Sequence record: OR352955.1
Source of the DNA: Escherichia phage AV125
Strand: one strand, 5' to 3'
Length of the DNA: 64,000 bases
Shown: positions 47,035 through 59,386 of the stretch, one piece after another
Layout of the letters: each line of letters opens with the position of its first letter
Numbering within the stretch: position 1 is the stretch's first letter
Notes under the pieces: model-generated
What the model saw: only the letters and a program-made list of their open reading frames with translations
What the model was told of the DNA's origin: nothing
The model's database searches: none
Translations under genes and position numbers: made by a program

Positions 47035-47313
47035 TTAAAATGGTTCGTTAGTCTCCATCATATATTCTGCTTCTAGTTCTTCCATGTGCTTTCTAAATTG
47101 GAAAGCAATTTCTGCTACAGTTACATTTAAATCTTTTTCAAAAACTTCTGTAGATCCTTCATAAAAACGAATACCGTCAATTAAAAGCCCTCCGTGGTAA
47201 TCCCAATCGCTTTCACGAGAAAGTGGATTAGGTTCTTCATAATAGTAATCCACCTCCACGACCAAGGCTTTCCCGTTACGAGTGGTGTATTCAAAATCAA
47301 AAGTGTTAATCAT
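47035..47313 (-). CDS. Hypothetical protein
   Basis: 92-aa ORF, coupled to the upstream gene. Confidence 0.3.
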   Translation of the reverse strand: MINTFDFEYTTRNGKALVVEVDYYYEEPNPLSRESDWDYHGGLLIDGIRFYEGSTEVFEKDLNVTVAEIAFQFRKHMEELEAEYMMETNEPF

Positions 47314-48257
47314 TATAGCTCCTCAAATAAAAGTCTACGACGCTCATTCAACACATCAATGTGATAATGAGTCCTGACATACTTAGCTAATGCTAATCCT
47401 TTCTCCATGCAAACATCGGGAGCACTTGATAAGTATTCCGTAATATCTTTCCACTCGGAAGGTGTTTCAGCAAAGAATAACAAATCTTTAAACTCTTGTG
47501 TATGATAATTCTCACGAGGAGAGCAGATTAAAGGTAAACCCTTAGCACCTGCCTCAAGAATTTTAAGATTGCTTTTTGCATTATTAAACACGTTATCGAT
47601 CAATGGTGCAAGACTGATTTGATGACCATCGTAAGATTCCATGTAGTTGGCATATGGTCTTACACCTTCATAAACACAAGTTGGTGCTACATTTTCCCTG
47701 ATTAAAGACCATTCACGACTACTTAAAACTTCAGAATCCCTACGAAAACCACATATTGTAAGATCTTTACCAAAATCGGGCAAGATAGCCAAATCTTGTT
47801 TATGTGTTTCACTTCCAGCCCAGACTAATGGAGTTTTGGAGTAGCGATCACGGGTCAACACAAATTGACCTTCATCGTAAGGAAGTCCATTAGGGATTAT
47901 GTGCACATTATCATTGTATTGTGAAAGTTCAACTTGCAAGGCAGGTGTCGTAGTTGTAACAAGATCACTGTGCTCTAAAAACCATTTTAAATGTTCACGA
48001 ATACCTGATTCAAAAATACCTTCTAACATGTGTCCTTTTGGAATAACTAAAGAGTCATCCAAATCCATAACCATTTTAAAGCCCAGGTTTTTAAGGGCTA
48101 AAAAGCCCTCTTTACCTTTTGTTGGCACTCCGTTAAAAACGAAAACGTTGTGTTTAGGTTGTGAAGAGAACTGCCTTGAGTAAGGCAGCACTACCCTATG
48201 GAAATCGCAGACACTATAATTGATTCCGTTACGATTGTCAAGAATTATTTGTCCCAT
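47313..48257 (-). CDS. Glycosyltransferase (GT-B fold-like), paralog 1
   Basis: C-terminal motif KSNLKILEAGAKGLPLICS typical of GT-B donor-binding domains; paralogous to the adjacent gene. Confidence 0.45.
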   Translation of the reverse strand: MGQIILDNRNGINYSVCDFHRVVLPYSRQFSSQPKHNVFVFNGVPTKGKEGFLALKNLGFKMVMDLDDSLVIPKGHMLEGIFESGIREHLKWFLEHSDLVTTTTPALQVELSQYNDNVHIIPNGLPYDEGQFVLTRDRYSKTPLVWAGSETHKQDLAILPDFGKDLTICGFRRDSEVLSSREWSLIRENVAPTCVYEGVRPYANYMESYDGHQISLAPLIDNVFNNAKSNLKILEAGAKGLPLICSPRENYHTQEFKDLLFFAETPSEWKDITEYLSSAPDVCMEKGLALAKYVRTHYHIDVLNERRRLLFEEL

Positions 48258-48264
48258 ACTTCAC

Positions 48265-49251
48265 CTACAAACTTTCAATAACCTGGCGTCGCAATTCGTT
48301 TGCATCTGCCAGATTATAATGTGTTCGAACATGTTCCGCTAAGAACAAGCCGCGATCTTCCCGATAGTTCGGATTTCGAAGAAGCTTAACAATTTCGTAA
48401 TGCCATTCTGCTTTATTCTCTGCATAAGCAACAGCGCGAGCATCTACAGGGTTAAAATAAGGTAATACCTTAGAACAAACAATCGGAATACCTTTTGCCC
48501 CAGCTTCAAGGATTTTGAGATTACTTTTACAATTATTAAAATCATTATCTACCAAAGGAGCTATAGCAATAGCATGACTTTCGTAAACACTCATGTAATT
48601 ATCTAAATCTTTTACAGCAGCTTTATATTTGGCATTTGGTAAATTTCTACGGATCTTAATCCACTCTTGCCCTGTGATACTCTGCGATGCTTCATATCCT
48701 GCAATAGTAAGAAGTTCATCATCGAAAGTATTAGAGACTAGTCGTAAATCGGGTTCGTGACTAGCACCGCCAGCCCATACAACAGGGGTACCGGATGAAC
48801 GATCATTTGACAAAGTGAATTGTCCGCTATCAAAAGGAAGTGCATTTCGGATCACAACAACATTCCTATTTAAGTGACGGATCTTATATGCCAAATATTC
48901 CGTAGTCACAATGACCACATCGGCAAGCTTAACCATAGCTACAATAGCATGAGTGTTTGACTCATATAAACTTGCTAAATAATGTTCTGGATTAAGTTGG
49001 TAGAAATCATCTAAATCTACAACAATCTTAACACCTTGACGTTTCAGGGACAGAACATATTCTGCCCCTTTAGAATGAATACGGTTAAACACGACAACAT
49101 CTTTCTTAGGCTGAAAATTATTGTTGTTAAATGGTATAACAATACGATGATAATCACAACCACTGTGAGGTTTTGCATCAATTTTCAGTTTAGTCCATTT
49201 TTTATTTGACATGTGCCAGTGCCTCCTCATAAGAAATTCGGATTTTCCCAT
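48265..49251 (-). CDS. Glycosyltransferase (GT-B fold-like), paralog 2
   Basis: Collinear similarity to the 47313 gene (DYHRIVIPF vs DFHRVVLPY; KSNLKILEAGAKGIPIVCS). Confidence 0.45.
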   Translation of the reverse strand: MGKSEFLMRRHWHMSNKKWTKLKIDAKPHSGCDYHRIVIPFNNNNFQPKKDVVVFNRIHSKGAEYVLSLKRQGVKIVVDLDDFYQLNPEHYLASLYESNTHAIVAMVKLADVVIVTTEYLAYKIRHLNRNVVVIRNALPFDSGQFTLSNDRSSGTPVVWAGGASHEPDLRLVSNTFDDELLTIAGYEASQSITGQEWIKIRRNLPNAKYKAAVKDLDNYMSVYESHAIAIAPLVDNDFNNCKSNLKILEAGAKGIPIVCSKVLPYFNPVDARAVAYAENKAEWHYEIVKLLRNPNYREDRGLFLAEHVRTHYNLADANELRRQVIESL

Positions 49252-49885
49252 TTTTAATATCTTCTAAAGACGCTTTATATTCTTCCCAGTTAATGCCAAT
49301 AGCAGCTTCTTTCTCTTCTTTTGTCAGATTAGCAAAAGGCATAGGATTGTTTCCAAAAACATCGTCTGGGTGGATATAAGCCATGATACGAAGTGGACAA
49401 GGTATTGCCTGAATGCCCTGATTCAAACCAGCAGCTTTCAAACGGTGTACCCATTCAGCATCTTCAAAACCATAGCCGTGAGTGTAAGGGCGGAAATAAC
49501 CCATCTTCTCAACAACGGCACGAGAATACATTGCAAATTGACACATTGCAAGTTCCCAGAGAATAACTTCTCCTTTACTCCCAACAACTTTATCTTTGAA
49601 ATACTCCGGCATACCAAAGAAATCCCATCCTCCAGAGACAGCTTGATCTACAAAATATGTTTCCCATCCCTCCATGATTGGGTAGCAATCGTCGTCAAAA
49701 ATAAACCAATAATCATAACCTTCTTCATAAAACTGGTGCATAAGTTCATTCCTGGCGTAAGCTACACCTTTACGATCTGGATCGTTGAATATTCGAAAAT
49801 CTGCATGTGGATCTGTTACAAGATAGTCTTTAAGTGGACGGACACCTACAGTGATAACACCCACTCCGATTTTAATATTTTCCAT
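49202..49885 (-). CDS. Glycosyltransferase (GT-A fold-like, DxD)
   Basis: FIFDDDCYP (DxD) and YGFEDAEW motifs; the 3' end overlaps the next gene by about 50 nt. Confidence 0.45.
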   Translation of the reverse strand: MENIKIGVGVITVGVRPLKDYLVTDPHADFRIFNDPDRKGVAYARNELMHQFYEEGYDYWFIFDDDCYPIMEGWETYFVDQAVSGGWDFFGMPEYFKDKVVGSKGEVILWELAMCQFAMYSRAVVEKMGYFRPYTHGYGFEDAEWVHRLKAAGLNQGIQAIPCPLRIMAYIHPDDVFGNNPMPFANLTKEEKEAAIGINWEEYKASLEDIKNGKIRISYEEALAHVK

Positions 49886-49893
49886 TTTCTCTC

Positions 49894-50457
49894 CTAGATA
49901 GTTTTACTGTGATCGTGACAGTGTAATAAATGATGTATAGACCGTTGAGGATTTGTTTGACCTAATCTGTAAATGTGAAACAGATACATTCCCCGCATCA
50001 ATCCTAACCTTTTTCCTTTTTCATGTAAAGTGCGAGAGAAAATTAGGTCGAATTGGATAGATTTTTCTTCGAAAGGAATTTCATTCCACAATGATTTTCT
50101 AAAAAGCAAAAAGAAACCTGCCAGAGGTGTTCCGAAAGGAACTTCTTCAACACTCACTTTATGATATTCTCTTGCAATCTTAGCATATTCTATATGGTTT
50201 AGAATATTTGGATCATCGTTAATTTGGTTAGAGAAAAGCTGATAACCACTACCTAACCTGTTACAAGTTGCACCTATTACATCAAAAGGCGGGTTTGACA
50301 TAATAAGCTCTTCAAGCATAGATGGTTGATCAGGCAGGAGGAACATTGTATCGGTATCTCTTAAGCACACCCAACTATCATCTGGAAGAACGGCAATAGC
50401 TTCATTGATAGCCTTGCCGATATTTCCTGTCAGATAGGGAGTAATATAATAAATCAT
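49894..50457 (-). CDS. Putative glycosyltransferase (GT-A-like, DxD motif CLRDTDTMF)
   Basis: N-terminal YITPY..GNIGKAINEAI then DTD motif; fourth member of a glycosyltransferase cluster. Confidence 0.3.
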   Translation of the reverse strand: MIYYITPYLTGNIGKAINEAIAVLPDDSWVCLRDTDTMFLLPDQPSMLEELIMSNPPFDVIGATCNRLGSGYQLFSNQINDDPNILNHIEYAKIAREYHKVSVEEVPFGTPLAGFFLLFRKSLWNEIPFEEKSIQFDLIFSRTLHEKGKRLGLMRGMYLFHIYRLGQTNPQRSIHHLLHCHDHSKTI

Positions 50458-51158: not shown

Positions 51159-51680
51159 TTAACTCCCCTTTGGTAGATAGAAACCATGCACTTTATCTCG
51201 ATAAACAAGACGCATATCACGCTCCCAGTGTGTCCTTATATTCCGTTTCTTGAAGTATAGAGCACCTTTAGTAACATCTAAAACAGACCGCAATTCAGGA
51301 AAATGTTTCTCTAAATAAAGTAAACGCTCCGCTATTGCTTTTGCTTCCTGCCACTTATCTTTCTCTGTCACGTTAAAAGTTTTCGCATATGAGAATTGCC
51401 CTTTCTGGAACAAGACTCCCTTGACTGTGTTAGGGAAGTAGGCATCATTTCTTCTGTTGATTACCACATTCCCAACGGCATTCATTCCTTTTTTACCCAG
51501 ACCGCGACCTTCTGCGTAAATTGCACAAGCTAATAGAATTTTATCATTATATTGCTTTGTACATTTGTGAACTACTTTAGCGGTTTTTACGTTTGCAGCT
51601 TCGGCTTTCGCCACAACAGGTGTAAATGTAAAAGCAGTTAAGGATAGTAACGCAACTGTTACAAAGTTTTTTATCAGCAA
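51159..51680 (-). CDS. Secreted cell-wall hydrolase, SleB/CwlJ-like (candidate endolysin)
   Basis: N-terminal signal peptide (LIKNFVTVALLSLTAFTFTPVVAKA); Hydrolase_2-like core LLACAIYAEGRGLGKKGMNAVGNVVINRR; TTG start 8 nt after AAGGAGG; own promoter. Confidence 0.5.
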   Translation of the reverse strand: MLIKNFVTVALLSLTAFTFTPVVAKAEAANVKTAKVVHKCTKQYNDKILLACAIYAEGRGLGKKGMNAVGNVVINRRNDAYFPNTVKGVLFQKGQFSYAKTFNVTEKDKWQEAKAIAERLLYLEKHFPELRSVLDVTKGALYFKKRNIRTHWERDMRLVYRDKVHGFYLPKGS

Positions 51681-51780: not shown

Positions 51781-52383
51781 TTATGGACATTCATACCATT
51801 CTTTTTTACCACCGAAGGCCATCACCACATCGCAAATATCCAGACCAGCTTTACCTACACCATATGCTTTCAGCTTCCATTCTCCATCTTCACGAACCAG
51901 GGAAGCCACGTGGCAGATTGTGTTGCCAGCTACTTCAGGAGCCAGGAAGTCAAAATCCAGAATTTCCACATTGCGCTCGGAGTCGAAGATTTTAAGCATA
52001 CCTTCAGAAGCATGACCAAAACGTTTCAGACCTGTATCATCATCAATGGTCAGAACAAAGGCAATCTCTTGTGCATCAGGAGAGATTTTAGCCAGAGTAA
52101 TATCAATCTGCTCCATGCTGCCAGTTCCATCACGAACATCGTCACCAGCGAAGGTAGAACGTTCAGGATCAAACTTGTTAGCATAGCAAACCAGATGACG
52201 TGCAGACAGCATTTCAGGATTGCCAGCGGCATTGTGACGACAAACCAGTGCACTTACATCCAGATCCAGTTTAGAATCAGATTTCCAAGAGAATTCCAGA
52301 CGCAGTTCTTTCAGAGCCGGAGCAACTTTCTTCAGGGAAATTTTTTCGCTAGAACCTTTTTTCAGGGAAATTTTATCAGTCAT
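51781..52383 (-). CDS. terD: TerD-domain protein (tellurite-resistance TerD family)
   Basis: N-terminal ISLKK repeats; core TFAGDDVRDGTGSMEQIDITLAKISPDAQEIAFVLTIDD matches the TerD GDxxxG..GDDE..I...L pattern; about 200 aa. Confidence 0.6.
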   Translation of the reverse strand: MTDKISLKKGSSEKISLKKVAPALKELRLEFSWKSDSKLDLDVSALVCRHNAAGNPEMLSARHLVCYANKFDPERSTFAGDDVRDGTGSMEQIDITLAKISPDAQEIAFVLTIDDDTGLKRFGHASEGMLKIFDSERNVEILDFDFLAPEVAGNTICHVASLVREDGEWKLKAYGVGKAGLDICDVVMAFGGKKEWYECP

Positions 52384-52398: not shown

Positions 52399-52668
52399 TT
52401 ATTTAAGTGTAATACCAGTTACAGTCAATTCTACTTCCAAAAGCTTAGATGTGTTTTGGATTGATACTAATTGTGCATGATGGTTTAGTTCTACAGCAGA
52501 ATAATCATTTTCCCCATCATCTACTTTTAAATAAACAATGATTTCACTAAGGTCTAAACCATTTTCGTCAAATGCATTTTCATAGACGAAAGTATCTCCT
52601 ACATCCAAATCTTTGATGGTAAGGCATCGTTTATTTACTTTTTGCTCATCAATTTCGAAGTTTAACAC
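52399..52668 (-). CDS. Small protein, paralog B of a two-member family (precedes TerD)
   Basis: KDLDVGDTFVYENAFDENGLD...LEVELTVTGITLK aligns with the 53690 ORF (EDLGIGATFMYYDAYEDAGLD...VEVDLEVTNITLK). Confidence 0.35.
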   Translation of the reverse strand: MLNFEIDEQKVNKRCLTIKDLDVGDTFVYENAFDENGLDLSEIIVYLKVDDGENDYSAVELNHHAQLVSIQNTSKLLEVELTVTGITLK

Positions 52669-52897
52669 TTCTTCCTCCTAATGTTATCTCCGGTTTGTAT
52701 ATACGAAGAATTATAACATTTTCATTTTCTTTGTCAACCCATTCTTCATAATCAGGCCATACATGAATCTCTACTCTACTTACAATATCTTCCATTCGCA
52801 CAGTCCCAATGAAATACTCTTTGAGACTGCGCATAATGAAAGCTTCTCTCTCGCGCCAATAATTTTCTATGACTTGAGAGGCAAGCTCGTCGATCAT
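52649..52897 (-). CDS. Hypothetical small protein
   Basis: 82-aa ORF between the vWA gene and paralog B; overlapping coupled starts. Confidence 0.3.
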   Translation of the reverse strand: MIDELASQVIENYWREREAFIMRSLKEYFIGTVRMEDIVSRVEIHVWPDYEEWVDKENENVIILRIYKPEITLGGRSVKLRN

Positions 52898-53688
52898 TTT
52901 TTAGCACCTACTTTAACAACCCACTCTCCGAACTCTTCAGATAAGAGTTTGTCATAAAGCTCTGAATCTGTCAAGTCTAAATCTTTAATGCCAATAAAAC
53001 CAACATTATCATAAGCATTTGCCAGTTCTTTCAGGAAGCCAAACTTCTCATTACCAACGCCAACCATGAACCAATAAATAGGTTTATTCTTATTCTCTTC
53101 AATAAGACGACGAACAGCACTAGGATCACCATTCTCACCATCCGTCTGGAAGAATACAACACCAGGGGTAACGTCAGCACCTGGTTCAGACACAGCTACA
53201 ACCTTTTCACGCTCTACAGATACTGTTTCAGTTTTACCAAGCAGACGATTAAAGAAGCCTTTCTTTGGAGCCTCCTCTTGTACCACTTGTTTAGTGGTAA
53301 TATATTTGGTAACAGTGCCAAAATACTCATCGTAGATATCTGCCATTACAGGGGCGTAATTTGTTCCACCTCCGATACGAACATTGCGCATACATTTACC
53401 AACATAGTCATCGTAAACGTCTGCTGTTGCTGGAGTAAGCTCTTGGGAACTCGTATTGAAGGCCCACATATCAATTTGTTGATTATCGTCGAACAGCATA
53501 CCAAAAGGAAGCAGTTTACCTACAAAATCACTCACTACCCCACTAGAATATAGACCATGCATACTACCAGAAATATCTAGAGCACATGCTACACGAAGAA
53601 CAATCTTACCTTCATTCAGGTTCTTATTCTTTTTCAGAGAGAAAGCAAGGTTTTCTTGACGTTTTTTCAGGCTGATTTTCTCGGACAT
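52894..53688 (-). CDS. von Willebrand factor A (vWA) domain protein with TerD-like N-terminal leader
   Basis: MIDAS motif DISGSM in LRVACALDISGSMHG; N-terminus MSEKISLKKRQENLAFSLKK parallels the TerD N-terminus MTDKISLKKGSSEKISLKK. Confidence 0.55.
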   Translation of the reverse strand: MSEKISLKKRQENLAFSLKKNKNLNEGKIVLRVACALDISGSMHGLYSSGVVSDFVGKLLPFGMLFDDNQQIDMWAFNTSSQELTPATADVYDDYVGKCMRNVRIGGGTNYAPVMADIYDEYFGTVTKYITTKQVVQEEAPKKGFFNRLLGKTETVSVEREKVVAVSEPGADVTPGVVFFQTDGENGDPSAVRRLIEENKNKPIYWFMVGVGNEKFGFLKELANAYDNVGFIGIKDLDLTDSELYDKLLSEEFGEWVVKVGAKK

Positions 53689-53689
53689 A

Positions 53690-53986
53690 TTATTTCTCCT
53701 TCTTAAGTGTAATATTGGTAACTTCTAAATCTACTTCCACCATATTTGTATCTGGCGGGATGCAATGAGTATAGCCTCGTTGTGCTAGTGATCCATTAAT
53801 ACAGATCGCACTGTTTGTGGAATTTTTAATGAACACCAAGTTACGGTAGGTATCCAACCCTGCGTCTTCATAGGCATCATAATACATGAATGTGGCCCCT
53901 ATGCCAAGATCTTCGAAAGCAATAGGTAAATCCTGACACTTTTCTTCTTGAATATTGAATCTAAACACGCATACCTCCTCTACCAA
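53690..53986 (-). CDS. Small protein, paralog A (precedes the vWA gene)
   Basis: See paralog B; 98 aa. Confidence 0.35.
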   Translation of the reverse strand: MVEEVCVFRFNIQEEKCQDLPIAFEDLGIGATFMYYDAYEDAGLDTYRNLVFIKNSTNSAICINGSLAQRGYTHCIPPDTNMVEVDLEVTNITLKKEK

Positions 53987-54524
53987 TTTTGAAGCCCAAA
54001 TCGTAAGCTTCTTTAGTGATCTTTTGCAACTCGCTTATAGGAAGTGTTACAAGAGGATCATCTTCTTCAATTTCCATCTTGTCATCTTCTGTTTCAATGA
54101 GAGTATTATGCACTTTATGATAAGGGTTGTCAACACGTTTAAACTTATTCTTTTCTGTGCTGAAGAAACAATCTGGATCTTCTTCACCATCACCCCAACC
54201 TTGATTAGGATCTCTGTCAGATTGTTCTGTAGGGATCTCACCTGTAAAGTACTCTTCCAGCACCATAGCGATGCCGTCCCTTGGATTTGAGGAATGCATC
54301 AAATCACAAACCTTACTCCAATCCATAGCCCAGTCGAACCGTTCACGAACGCCATTTTCATCCTCTTTTCCAGAGAAAACACAACCATAACTATCATAGT
54401 TGCCATACATCTCTTCAATAACAACACCGTCCTTCAAAAGAAAGAGGTAGCAAGGTGATCCGTCGAAAGAAGTAGAAAGGGCAGCTTTGCCCGATTCTTT
54501 GCACAAAAAGCTAAAACAACCCAT
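53961..54524 (-). CDS. Hypothetical acidic protein
   Basis: 187-aa ORF rich in Asp/Glu (EEDPDCFF, ETEDDKMEIEEDDP). Confidence 0.3.
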   Translation of the reverse strand: MGCFSFLCKESGKAALSTSFDGSPCYLFLLKDGVVIEEMYGNYDSYGCVFSGKEDENGVRERFDWAMDWSKVCDLMHSSNPRDGIAMVLEEYFTGEIPTEQSDRDPNQGWGDGEEDPDCFFSTEKNKFKRVDNPYHKVHNTLIETEDDKMEIEEDDPLVTLPISELQKITKEAYDLGFKIGRGGMRV

Positions 54525-54893: not shown

Positions 54894-55090
54894 TACTCCT
54901 CCTCCTCATTGAAGTCAATATCTGCAAGGAGTTCGAATTTACGGAAGTTACGACAACCTTCATAAATATAACAATCACGACAAACTGCTAGAACACTTGG
55001 GGGATATATGCCTCCCATCGGCGCGAATCGTTTTTCGTCATCATAACGGACACCAATGTCCTCATCAATTATATAGATACGGATTCTCAT
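54893..55090 (-). CDS. Hypothetical small protein with acidic C-terminus
   Basis: 65-aa ORF ending ...DIDFNEEEE; start overlaps the TelA stop. Confidence 0.3.
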   Translation of the reverse strand: MRIRIYIIDEDIGVRYDDEKRFAPMGGIYPPSVLAVCRDCYIYEGCRNFRKFELLADIDFNEEEE

Positions 55091-56199
55091 TTACCAAGCC
55101 CTCGTTTCACAGCAGCTACCATCCCGTCTTCCAAAGATTGAACTTCATTAATATAATCAACACGAGCAGCACGGGCTTCCGTATTGATGCGGTTAGTTTC
55201 TTCCAACATCTTAACCAAGTTTTCCTGATCGTGACGCAGAGTTTCAATATCCAACACTTGACGGTTAGCCAGTGCTGCTGCTTCGATCTGATTCTGTGTG
55301 GCAAGATCGCTACCCAGTTTAATTGCCAGGTTAAATTCATCAAGAACGTTATTCTGCGACTCTGCTGCTTTCATTTGACGTAAGCTCTCGATATACATTG
55401 AGAAGTTAGCAGAGTAAGCAGGAATAACATTATTTACTATGTTACGCGCAGATCGCATTAAGCTTGCAGAAACTTTTTGCATACCTTGTACACGCGGTCC
55501 CATTTGGACACACAGTAGGCGCAATGCTTTTAAATCTGCAATACGAATCTCCAGAAGATCCAAAGTATCTCGGATCACTTGTCGCTGTTCTACTGCATCT
55601 TCTGGAAGAGCAGCCAAAGCTTGTTCTTCTTTTTCATAGGTTGCTGTTAGAAGCTGCATATCTCGGTTCAAACTTGCAGCATATTGTCCAATAGCTTGAT
55701 GTAGCTTTTCAAGATATACCAAGGAATCTTCTTCTTTGCGAATATCCATTTGAAGGTTTTTTACCAACTCTTCAATACGGTTATTAACATTATCAAACTC
55801 CCCAAACAGATCTTCTTTCATACCCATAACTTTTTTAATGAGTTTAGTAATACCCTTGCTTTGTTTAATAGAGTTTGGATCAAGTTGTTTTGCCTGTTTA
55901 ATCAAAGCTGTGAGTCGTTCACTCATCTGATCGCCTTGATTACTACGTTGATGTTTTAATACCTCGGCATTCAAGGAACGCAAGGTTGTTCCTGCCTCTG
56001 CCCCAATCTCTTCGATCTCCTGTCGGGTCATAGAAGGCAAAACTGGAACTTCTTGCGGTGCCGCTGGTGCATAAACAGGACTGGCATCTAACACGCTTGG
56101 AGCGAATACAGATTTACTTGCATCTGTTGTTGCAGCAAATACGCTCATTTCAGGTTTCTTCTGACAGCCAGTAGCTGCTTTTAAAAATGGACTTGTCAT
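55087..56199 (-). CDS. telA: TelA-like toxic anion resistance family protein
   Basis: 370 aa, largely helical with long heptad-like segments; size and composition as for TelA/KlaA; lies in a cluster with TerD, vWA and TerC homologs. Confidence 0.5.
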   Translation of the reverse strand: MTSPFLKAATGCQKKPEMSVFAATTDASKSVFAPSVLDASPVYAPAAPQEVPVLPSMTRQEIEEIGAEAGTTLRSLNAEVLKHQRSNQGDQMSERLTALIKQAKQLDPNSIKQSKGITKLIKKVMGMKEDLFGEFDNVNNRIEELVKNLQMDIRKEEDSLVYLEKLHQAIGQYAASLNRDMQLLTATYEKEEQALAALPEDAVEQRQVIRDTLDLLEIRIADLKALRLLCVQMGPRVQGMQKVSASLMRSARNIVNNVIPAYSANFSMYIESLRQMKAAESQNNVLDEFNLAIKLGSDLATQNQIEAAALANRQVLDIETLRHDQENLVKMLEETNRINTEARAARVDYINEVQSLEDGMVAAVKRGLGK

Positions 56200-56786
56200 T
56201 CTTCATTCTCCTCTTCTGCATCTCTTATATATGGTGAAACACCGTACTCTTTAGCTACTTTAACCCAATCGTCCCATTTATACAACCATAATTTTCCTTC
56301 GGTCCCTTCTTTATCTGATTTCAACCACATATTAGGTTGCTTACCTGGGTACATGCGATTAGGTTTACGATTATAACCTCTAACACATCTTGTCGCAAAC
56401 CTATCTACCAGAACAAGAACATATTTATATTCGTGGTTCAACGGCTCTTTGGAAGTGGCTTTAGGATTAGCCCCTAACTCTGCTGCCAGTTTTTGCCAAT
56501 GAGCACCGTGTCTACTAAACTTACCCATACAACCATCAATAGCATGAGCAATTTCGTGCTTCATTGTATCCACGATCATATCTCTTGTAGAGTTCTTATG
56601 CAAGTGCCAATTTACAACAACAATTTTATCTCGGTAGTTGCACCAACCGAAAGAGTTATTCACTTTGTTTCTAACACAAGCTTTATATCCTGCTTCACGT
56701 AACATGTTGTAGTAAACAGGAAAATCTTCTTTTATTTCCTGCATCACTTCCCACCACAAGAGTTGCAAGTCTCTCTCGGTATACAT
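56196..56786 (-). CDS. SprT-like zinc metalloprotease domain protein
   Basis: HExxH motif in MKHEIAHAIDGCMGKFSRHGAHWQKLAAELG; acidic C-terminal tail. Confidence 0.5.
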   Translation of the reverse strand: MYTERDLQLLWWEVMQEIKEDFPVYYNMLREAGYKACVRNKVNNSFGWCNYRDKIVVVNWHLHKNSTRDMIVDTMKHEIAHAIDGCMGKFSRHGAHWQKLAAELGANPKATSKEPLNHEYKYVLVLVDRFATRCVRGYNRKPNRMYPGKQPNMWLKSDKEGTEGKLWLYKWDDWVKVAKEYGVSPYIRDAEEENEE

Positions 56787-58387: not shown

Positions 58388-58405
58388 AGCCTCCCGAAGG
58401 AGGCT
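58388..58405 (-). terminator. Terminator hairpin after TerC gene
   Basis: Stem AGCCTCC / GGAGGCT with loop CGAA, followed on the minus strand by ATTTTAT. Confidence 0.5.
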
Positions 58406-58411
58406 CATTTA

Positions 58412-59386
58412 TTAAACAGTAGCTTCTTCTTTTTCAGGGAAGATAAAGCTTGCAATAACACCAAGAGATAATGTGCCTAGAACAATCATCAGACTTACGT
58501 TAGGGGAAATATCATGCGGGAGGAATGACCACTTGGCATGAAGTGTTTCACCGAACGGGTGATACATAAGTTTAGCACCAACAAACACCAGAACCACAGC
58601 AACAGCTTTCTCTAAGTGAACCAGATATTTCACAGCTACACTTAACACAAAGAAAAGTGCACGTAAACCAAGAACAGCCATCAGCATTGCAGAATAAACT
58701 AGCAGAGGTTCTTGTGTCACACCGATCACAGCCGGAACTGAATCAAAAGAGAAGACAATATCTGTAAGCTCAATAACAAACACACAAAGAAGAGCAGGAG
58801 TTGCATATTTAATACCATTCTTAATGGTGATGAACTTTTCACCATCCAGTGCATTGTGCACAGGCAGAACTTTACCTACTAAACGAACAGCCCAATGTTT
58901 AGAGTAATCAATATCCTCTTCTTCGTCACCACCTTTGATGATAGCCACGGCAGACCAAGCTACAATCAAACCGAACAACACTTGGACCGACCAATGAAGG
59001 TTAAACAAAGCGGTCCCTGCTGCAACAAAAATACCTCGGAAGACAATGGCTCCTGCAATCCCCCAAAGTAGAATCTTATGTTGGAGATGTGTGCTCTTAA
59101 TTCCAAAGCTTGCAAAAATTGCCATGAACACCATTAGGTTATCTACAGAAAGACTCTTTTCCAACACATAGCCACTTAGGAAAAGCGCGGCAAACTCTTT
59201 ACCATGTTCTACCCAAATGAATGCGTAATACCCTAAAGCTAAAGCAATCCAAAAAACAGACCAAAGCAAAGCAGATTTAATTCCAATTTCTTTATTCTCT
59301 TTATGACCAAAGAAATCGATACCAATAGACAATGCTAAAATACCAACTAAAACAACTACATCAATAATTGGGAAACCGAGTTGCAT
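58412..59386 (-). CDS. terC: TerC-family integral membrane protein
   Basis: 324 aa with multiple hydrophobic helices throughout; size and topology consistent with the TerC family; in the Ter-like cluster. Confidence 0.45.
   Translation of the reverse strand: MQLGFPIIDVVVLVGILALSIGIDFFGHKENKEIGIKSALLWSVFWIALALGYYAFIWVEHGKEFAALFLSGYVLEKSLSVDNLMVFMAIFASFGIKSTHLQHKILLWGIAGAIVFRGIFVAAGTALFNLHWSVQVLFGLIVAWSAVAIIKGGDEEEDIDYSKHWAVRLVGKVLPVHNALDGEKFITIKNGIKYATPALLCVFVIELTDIVFSFDSVPAVIGVTQEPLLVYSAMLMAVLGLRALFFVLSVAVKYLVHLEKAVAVVLVFVGAKLMYHPFGETLHAKWSFLPHDISPNVSLMIVLGTLSLGVIASFIFPEKEEATV

Follow-up and report, generated by a model that had tools for sequence, protein, structure and literature searches.

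Two short open reading frames (ORFs) in the genome of Escherichia phage AV125 (record OR352955.1) lie directly upstream of genes for a TerD-domain protein and a TerF-type vWA protein, which raises the question of what a small protein family does at both positions. We analysed a stretch of 64,000 nucleotides (nt) of this genome, referred to here as the window. An earlier note on this DNA, made by a model from the sequence alone, had proposed that each small protein serves the protein encoded after it as a dedicated partner or chaperone. Our analysis supports a looser relationship. The small ORFs, here called smallA (before TerD) and smallB (before vWA), are paralogs of an acidic, lineage-restricted family, PHROG 11278, that appears to travel with the vWA-TerD pair. 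Their products would be co-expressed, dispensable accessories or adaptors of that pair or complex and not obligatory one-to-one chaperones, a reading to which we assign a probability of about 0.5.

The paralogy is secure. SmallA (52399-52668, minus strand; 89 amino acids, aa) has a GTG start with AGGAGG upstream and lies 15 nt upstream of TerD. SmallB (53690-53968, minus strand; 92 aa) ends 1 nt upstream of the vWA gene. For smallB the earlier note had chosen the TTG at 53986 (98 aa), which gives the longest possible ORF; the GTG at 53968 is preceded by GAGGAGG at a distance of 6 nt, public annotations of near-identical phages begin the gene there, and this start is probably the correct one. 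A gap-free alignment spans both proteins from end to end, with 31% identity over 89 aa (BLASTP E-value 1e-13). Their Smith-Waterman score of 116 compares with 26 ± 4.8 for shuffled sequences (z = 18.6), and none of 5000 shuffles scored as high. Both are full-length members of PHROG 11278, smallA with E 7e-45 (profile positions 1-89 of 92) and smallB with E 5e-49 (1-92 of 92). The identity of the ungapped DNA is only 48%, so the duplication is old. The earlier description of two clear paralogs, directly upstream of TerD and vWA and conserved at the protein level rather than recently duplicated, is thus borne out, including against shuffled controls.

Among close Phapecoctavirus genomes, the ratio of non-synonymous to synonymous polymorphism (pN/pS) is 0.27 for smallA and 0.31 for smallB, compared with 0.02 for TerD and 0.06 for vWA. 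The small ORFs are real genes under purifying selection that is looser than on their neighbours. SmallA has an isoelectric point (pI) of 4.26, and all family members are acidic (pI 4.3-5.5). No model in Pfam, NCBIfam or PADLOC fits either protein, and a public annotation pipeline using structure alignment also drew a blank on the small protein. Among 1.84 billion representative proteins, a profile search recovered only about 15 clusters of relatives of 87-93 aa. Giant repeat proteins (2000-5700 aa) in the same search were rejected: their folds are unrelated by Pfam (He_PIG Ig, DUF11, ankyrin, HYR) and their scores are summed weak repeat matches. A high-GC contig from the related-locus search with protein P0028 was also discarded, as only 'VYEAFGLD' matched, inside an unrelated protein; the same search with P0035 as query found no locus.

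The genes that follow are readily classified. The TerD-domain protein (51781-52383, minus strand; 200 aa) matches Pfam TerD (PF02342) with E 3.2e-28 and 98.9 bits against a cut-off of 25.3; residues 5-179 cover profile positions 3-177 of 187, which makes it a member of the family. The vWA protein (52894-53688, minus strand; 264 aa) matches Pfam vWA-TerF-like (PF10138) with E 1.6e-37 and 130.1 bits against a cut-off of 29.4. It carries the DxSxS motif of the metal ion-dependent adhesion site (MIDAS) type, D38-I-S40-G-S42 in LDISGSM, which is conserved in nearly all homologs. Between vWA and smallA lies a further ORF of 82 aa (52649-52897, minus strand; PHROG 22387, without known function), which the earlier note did not mention. 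Its pN/pS is 0.10 among the same close genomes.

Each small gene appears to head a transcription unit. A sigma-70-type promoter match with an extended -10 TG (TTGACA-16-TATAAT; 52710-52737, minus strand; 12 of 12 consensus positions) is situated in the 82-aa ORF, 41 nt upstream of smallA. It recurs with 12 of 12 positions and at the same distance in phiWec186 (locus L003, 4516-4543) and PsgM04F (L005, 6229-6256), at only ∼ 73% DNA identity. A second match (TTGACA-17-CATAAT; 54105-54133, minus strand; 11 of 12) lies in a 187-aa ORF, 136 nt upstream of smallB; its hexamers, spacing and distance from the small gene are the same in phi92 (L001) and PsgM04F (L005). The two conserved matches are consistent with a module that is read as two units, P-smallB-vWA-82aa and P-smallA-TerD, and they suggest that smallA-TerD may be transcribed as a separate unit by the host polymerase.

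The junction between smallB and vWA is tighter still. The last codons of smallB, AAG AAG GAG AAA TAA, contain the Shine-Dalgarno sequence of vWA and are followed by T ATG. In four divergent B-type genes (53690-53704 in the window; ∼7429 in L001; ∼5499 in L003; ∼5252 in L004) the ending GAG AAA TAA provides the vWA Shine-Dalgarno sequence, and the B-type stop codon lies 1 nt before the vWA ATG or overlaps it. This geometry favours translational coupling from smallB to vWA. The C-terminal (K/E)EK tail of the B-type proteins is encoded by GGAGAAATAA, which is the vWA Shine-Dalgarno sequence, and the requirements of this ribosome-binding site, not those of the protein, may account for the tail. 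At the other junction, GAGGAG is found between the smallA stop and the TerD ATG.

The family was found in 126 GenBank phage records, all from Stephanstirmvirinae except a few with other host labels or without a subfamily assignment, and in a few metagenomic relatives. Bacterial genomes yielded no member that we could identify; wherever the source of a member is named, it is a phage or metagenome record. A hidden Markov model (HMM) of the family detects exactly two copies in the window, one each in related loci L001, L004 and L007-L011, and none in L002. Phapecoctavirus, phiWec186, PsgM04F and loci L012-L014 share the order smallB-vWA-80aa-smallA-TerD. A single B-type copy is found in phi92 (Justusliebigvirus) and Klebsiella phage 05F01 (small-vWA-TerD), and Klebsiella phage KP13-26 has no small copy. 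In more distant metagenomic phages (25-35% identity), which serve as the outgroup, a single copy sits between the two larger genes (vWA-small-TerD). The 82-aa ORF occurs only alongside smallA (Phapecoctavirus, phiWec186 and PsgM04F) and is missing from phi92 and 05F01. In every context recovered, even at 25-30% identity, the small family adjoins vWA and/or TerD. What relatives share is an association of the family with the two genes; copy number and position vary.

Two oddities of the public records were seen at this locus. Records MG065650.1, OP562383.1, OR584014.1 and MH252123.1, labelled as Campylobacter, Acinetobacter, Pseudomonas and Klebsiella phages, match E. coli Phapecoctavirus genomes here with 98% identity or have an identical gene order; mislabelled hosts or contaminated samples are the probable cause. 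In PV691511.1 (WPEC2) the region is split: the TerD-to-vWA half is found at ∼ 100 kb, and a match to part of vWA (68% of the protein) at ∼ 137 kb, which indicates a rearrangement through the vWA gene.

A neighbour-joining tree of the small proteins sets A apart from B and from the outgroup, with bootstrap values of 85% for the A clade, 92% for a core B clade and 77% for the outgroup. The simplest history would start from a single small copy between vWA and TerD. Duplication within Stephanstirmvirinae would then have produced A, in front of TerD, and B, in front of vWA, and phi92-like phages would later have lost A together with the 80-aa gene, keeping only B. The arrangement in AV125 would correspond to two short transcription units, each beginning with a small paralog behind a near-consensus sigma-70-type promoter.

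Several observations weigh against a functional role of this kind. The carriers are all related and syntenic, and gene order passed down from an ancestor may account for the adjacency without a functional cause. In relatives, unrelated small ORFs occupy these two positions: 46-68-aa ORFs in some, and in L018 and L019 a second family of 110-116 aa (110 and 116 aa; 27% identity, E 5e-10), which lies before vWA in L018 (3653-3985) and between vWA and TerD in L019 (4744-5094). KP13-26 has no small copy, yet its vWA, TerD and both of their leader peptides are intact. These findings suggest that small genes may generally come and go at these positions. The promoters are matches to the consensus plus conservation only, and the tree was built on ∼ 90 columns, with a support of only 54% for the full B clade. 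The positional alternation of the 110-116-aa family mirrors that of the PHROG 11278 family.

From these points follows the principal rival, in which nothing functional connects the small genes to vWA or TerD; they would simply occupy variable positions in a syntenic block, with one local duplication and inherited adjacency. The replacement by unrelated ORFs and the intact KP13-26 module speak for it, as do the 209 phage records with vWA compared with 126 with the small family (no small-family member was detectable in vWA-bearing Caulobacter, Pseudomonas, Rhizobium and Bacillus phages) and a constraint on the small proteins that is 5-15 times weaker than that on TerD and vWA. However, adjacency to vWA or TerD holds down to 25-30% identity and through relocation or duplication, in four divergent lineages the last codons of the B copy double as the ribosome-binding site of vWA, and the conserved putative promoters put each paralog first in a unit with its effector. 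We regard an absence of any functional tie as possible but doubtful. If it were correct, with the small genes only fillers in variable positions, the locus would reflect ordinary phage genome turnover.

The proposal in the earlier note, a dedicated partner or chaperone for each downstream gene (smallA for TerD, smallB for vWA) with roles split after duplication, fares less well. It does account for two distinct clades that each keep their position, for a B copy placed for translational coupling to vWA and an A copy 15 nt from TerD, and for a promoter-like site belonging to each pair. However, a lone copy stands before TerD in the outgroup and before vWA in phi92 and 05F01, and KP13-26 manages with none. 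One copy or none is thus compatible with both effectors, which weakens the idea of one chaperone per effector, and bacterial TerD and TerF-type vWA proteins fold and function without such a protein. We therefore do not retain strict one-to-one pairing, which we consider unlikely, and prefer an accessory or adaptor shared by the pair.

The predicted fold gives some indication of what such an adaptor could look like. AlphaFold2 (AF2) gave a mean predicted local distance difference test (pLDDT) score of 45.7, unusable, from an alignment of seven sequences, whereas an alignment of 17 sequences raised it to 85.8 for smallB. The model suggests an SH3-like small β-barrel, a resemblance of fold only and not membership of a known barrel family. 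Across the matches listed, SH3-like barrels (the C-terminal domain of ribosomal protein L2, domain I/KOW of EF-P, FeoA, the C-terminal SH3 domain of DtxR, HspQ) have 3-21% identity to the small protein, that is, no sequence similarity. A Foldseek search of the PDB with the model gave no match below E = 1; against BFVD, the first two ranks were Phapecoctavirus phage entries (one of them the phAPEC8 ortholog) and the rest were weak and mostly uncharacterised phage proteins. Like KOW, Sm or L2-like SH3 barrels, the small proteins could also bind nucleic acid and so regulate expression of the downstream gene instead of contacting its product, but their acidity makes this very improbable.

A second link between the two effectors had been seen in their N-termini. 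TerD and vWA do begin with near-identical peptides: MTDKISLKKGSSEKISLKK in TerD (residues 1-19; 52327-52383, minus strand) and MSEKISLKKRQENLAFSLKK in vWA (residues 1-20; 53629-53688, minus strand), the latter with two hxLxK units before the first vWA strand and the DxSxS motif. The pattern [IVLF][ST]LKK has six matches in the 51.7 k residues of the six-frame ORFs of the window, five of which are in TerD (two), vWA (two) and the C-terminus of smallB (one). Residues 1-25 of TerD are basic (charge +4.5) and the rest of the protein is acidic. Alignment of the whole TerD and vWA proteins is not significant (z = 2.4; 99 of 3000 shuffles reach the score); at the level of sequence, the similarity is confined to the leader. 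An HMM of the leader ranks TerD as the top non-self hit among 567 ORFs of the window, yet with E = 0.27. The motif is too short, and a common origin of the vWA leader and the TerD N-terminus is therefore statistically unproven. Used alone, the vWA leader (the 20-28 residues before the vWA domain) gave no Pfam match, and no match to TerD even at E 10.

Comparison with homologs places the motif in a wider setting. In TerD, the leader lies within the Pfam match and aligns to VSLSKGG--NVSLSK of 2KXT and 3IBZ; ISLKK is here the ordinary start of the TerD domain, its first β-hairpin, and is inherited. In the vWA family, a double hxLxK is present in nearly all free-standing members (62 homolog clusters). 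Phage vWA proteins have ISLxK...ISLxK; in distant bacterial members, for instance one from Neobacillus, the element is weaker and reads IDLxKK...VLEKK. TerF-type fusions (homologs P0105-P0108) carry three to four copies of hxLxK in the linker that joins a complete TerD domain to vWA, for example VNLQKQRLVKLEKSGHPLVSLAKQARISLEK. As it is common to free and fused members, hxLxK is a property of the TerF-type vWA family, not a remnant of a TerD domain deleted in this phage. The shared leader thus stands as a motif; what falls away is a special link between the two phage genes, since the motif is family-wide in TerD and in TerF-type vWA proteins. Both leaders are unchanged in KP13-26, which has no small protein.

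A more specific version of the adaptor model can be formulated, although we would hold it only as a long shot. The acidic barrels would dock on the basic double hxLxK hairpin of TerD and vWA, e.g. by strand addition, and would control a non-covalent TerD-vWA assembly that replaces the TerF fusion. If true, the hxLxK leader would gain its first defined role, as a docking peptide. As a separate observation, smallB ends in ...VTNITLKKEK (53690-53710), in which ITLKK fits the h-[ST]-L-K-K pattern of the TerD and vWA leaders; other members of the small family end in ITLK, IKLK or ISVK. The ITLKK end may be fortuitous, or it may form a strand that imitates the leaders or pairs with them.

The surrounding genes form a Ter module. 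Over the 2.9-kb region, identity is 99.9% to Escherichia phage vB_EcoM_ESCO25 and 97-99% to ∼ 60 other phAPEC8-like phages; the window is a Phapecoctavirus genome (phAPEC8-like E. coli phage, Stephanstirmvirinae) with a shortened Ter module. Every gene from ∼ 47 to ∼ 60 kb of the window lies on the minus strand, and the module order as transcribed is TerC, SprT, TelA, smallB, vWA, 82-aa ORF, smallA, TerD and a cell-wall hydrolase. The TerC/Alx-family membrane protein (58412-59386, minus strand) matches Pfam TerC with E 3e-40 and TIGR03718 with 318.6 bits against a cut-off of 246.4. TelA (55087-56199, minus strand) matches Pfam TelA with E 2.2e-33 and PHROG 5890, 'tellurite resistance'. The SprT-like protein (56196-56786, minus strand) and the Hydrolase_2 cell-wall hydrolase (51159-51680, minus strand) were assigned by Pfam. 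PADLOC gave zero matches for TerD, vWA, smallA, smallB, the 82-aa and 187-aa ORFs, TelA and TerC.

Some features at the edges of the module were also noted. The NCBIfam model that the phage TerC passes (318.6 bits against 246.4) is that of riboswitch-controlled Alx-type TerC proteins; Rfam detected no yybP-ykoY riboswitch upstream of the gene, nor any other RNA family across the whole window. A promoter-like site (10 of 12) is present upstream of TerC at 59462-59435. Just 3′ of the TerC stop, a GC-rich hairpin (AGCCTCC-TTCG-GGAGGCT; 58388-58405) is terminator-like on both strands, with a poor T tail. Immediately downstream of the Ter module, at 47313-50457, are four successive minus-strand ORFs whose syntenic genes in phi92 are annotated as predicted glycosyltransferase folds; one relative has a weak Glyco_trans_1_2 match. 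Judged from these annotations, the four ORFs may modify host or phage surface sugars.

Tellurite resistance has served as a marker for decades, and the Ter systems carried by phages have been proposed to contribute to superinfection exclusion or stress tolerance. A dispensable small protein found exclusively together with the vWA-TerD pair would offer an inexpensive way into that pair by pull-downs and genetics. The hxLxK element before TerF-type vWA domains, conserved in fused and free forms, is likewise worth testing. Our literature search found nothing relevant on structural work on TerD or TerF, or on the Ter genes of Phapecoctavirus.

How far the AV125 proteins resemble characterized Ter proteins can be judged from their alignments. 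TerD aligns over residues 5-183 with TerD of Klebsiella pneumoniae (2KXT) and Streptomyces TerD (3IBZ), the N-terminal VSLSKGG-NVSLSK corresponding to ISLKKGSSEKISLKK in the phage protein. A loop at phage residues ∼ 78-91 reads GDDVRDGTGSMEQ, compared with GDNRTGEGDGDDES in 2KXT, with some acidic positions kept and several lost. We take the aligned loop of 2KXT to be part of the Ca2+ site of Klebsiella TerD. The loss of several acidic residues suggests that metal binding by the phage protein may differ from that of bacterial TerD.

The vWA protein fits PF10138, described as the vWA found in the TerF C-terminus; bacterial TerF, encoded in the terZABCDEF operon, combines a TerD domain with a C-terminal vWA. 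It is not TerF proper, as the TerD and vWA domains are not in one polypeptide and TerD is a separate gene 510 nt downstream. The distant homologs P0105-P0108 are TerD+vWA fusions, and hxLxK precedes the vWA domain in fused and free forms alike. Unlike TerF, the phage system has separate genes for TerD and vWA with two small ORFs between them, and a vWA protein with two hxLxK units and no TerD domain.

Shortened Ter operons comprising TerD, TerC, TerF-vWA and TelA are already known from large phages (PMC7824862, Iyer et al., 2021; PMC8386662, Klebsiella phage phiKp34), and the passages of these papers that we draw on propose roles in membrane-linked or chemical stress response or in the exclusion of superinfecting phages. 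The AV125 module resembles the operons in these passages in that the same four Pfam families are grouped in a large virulent phage genome. It differs in that the passages describe no small accessory family, whereas here a lineage-restricted small barrel protein (predicted) is present, in one or two copies by vWA and TerD. Both paralogs fit PHROG 11278 end to end; the PHROG itself carries no annotation, and the link to vWA and TerD, the predicted fold and the two positions are added here. No new mechanism is evidenced yet; what is new is an unannotated, lineage-specific family and a clearer picture of hxLxK, within a known kind of phage module.

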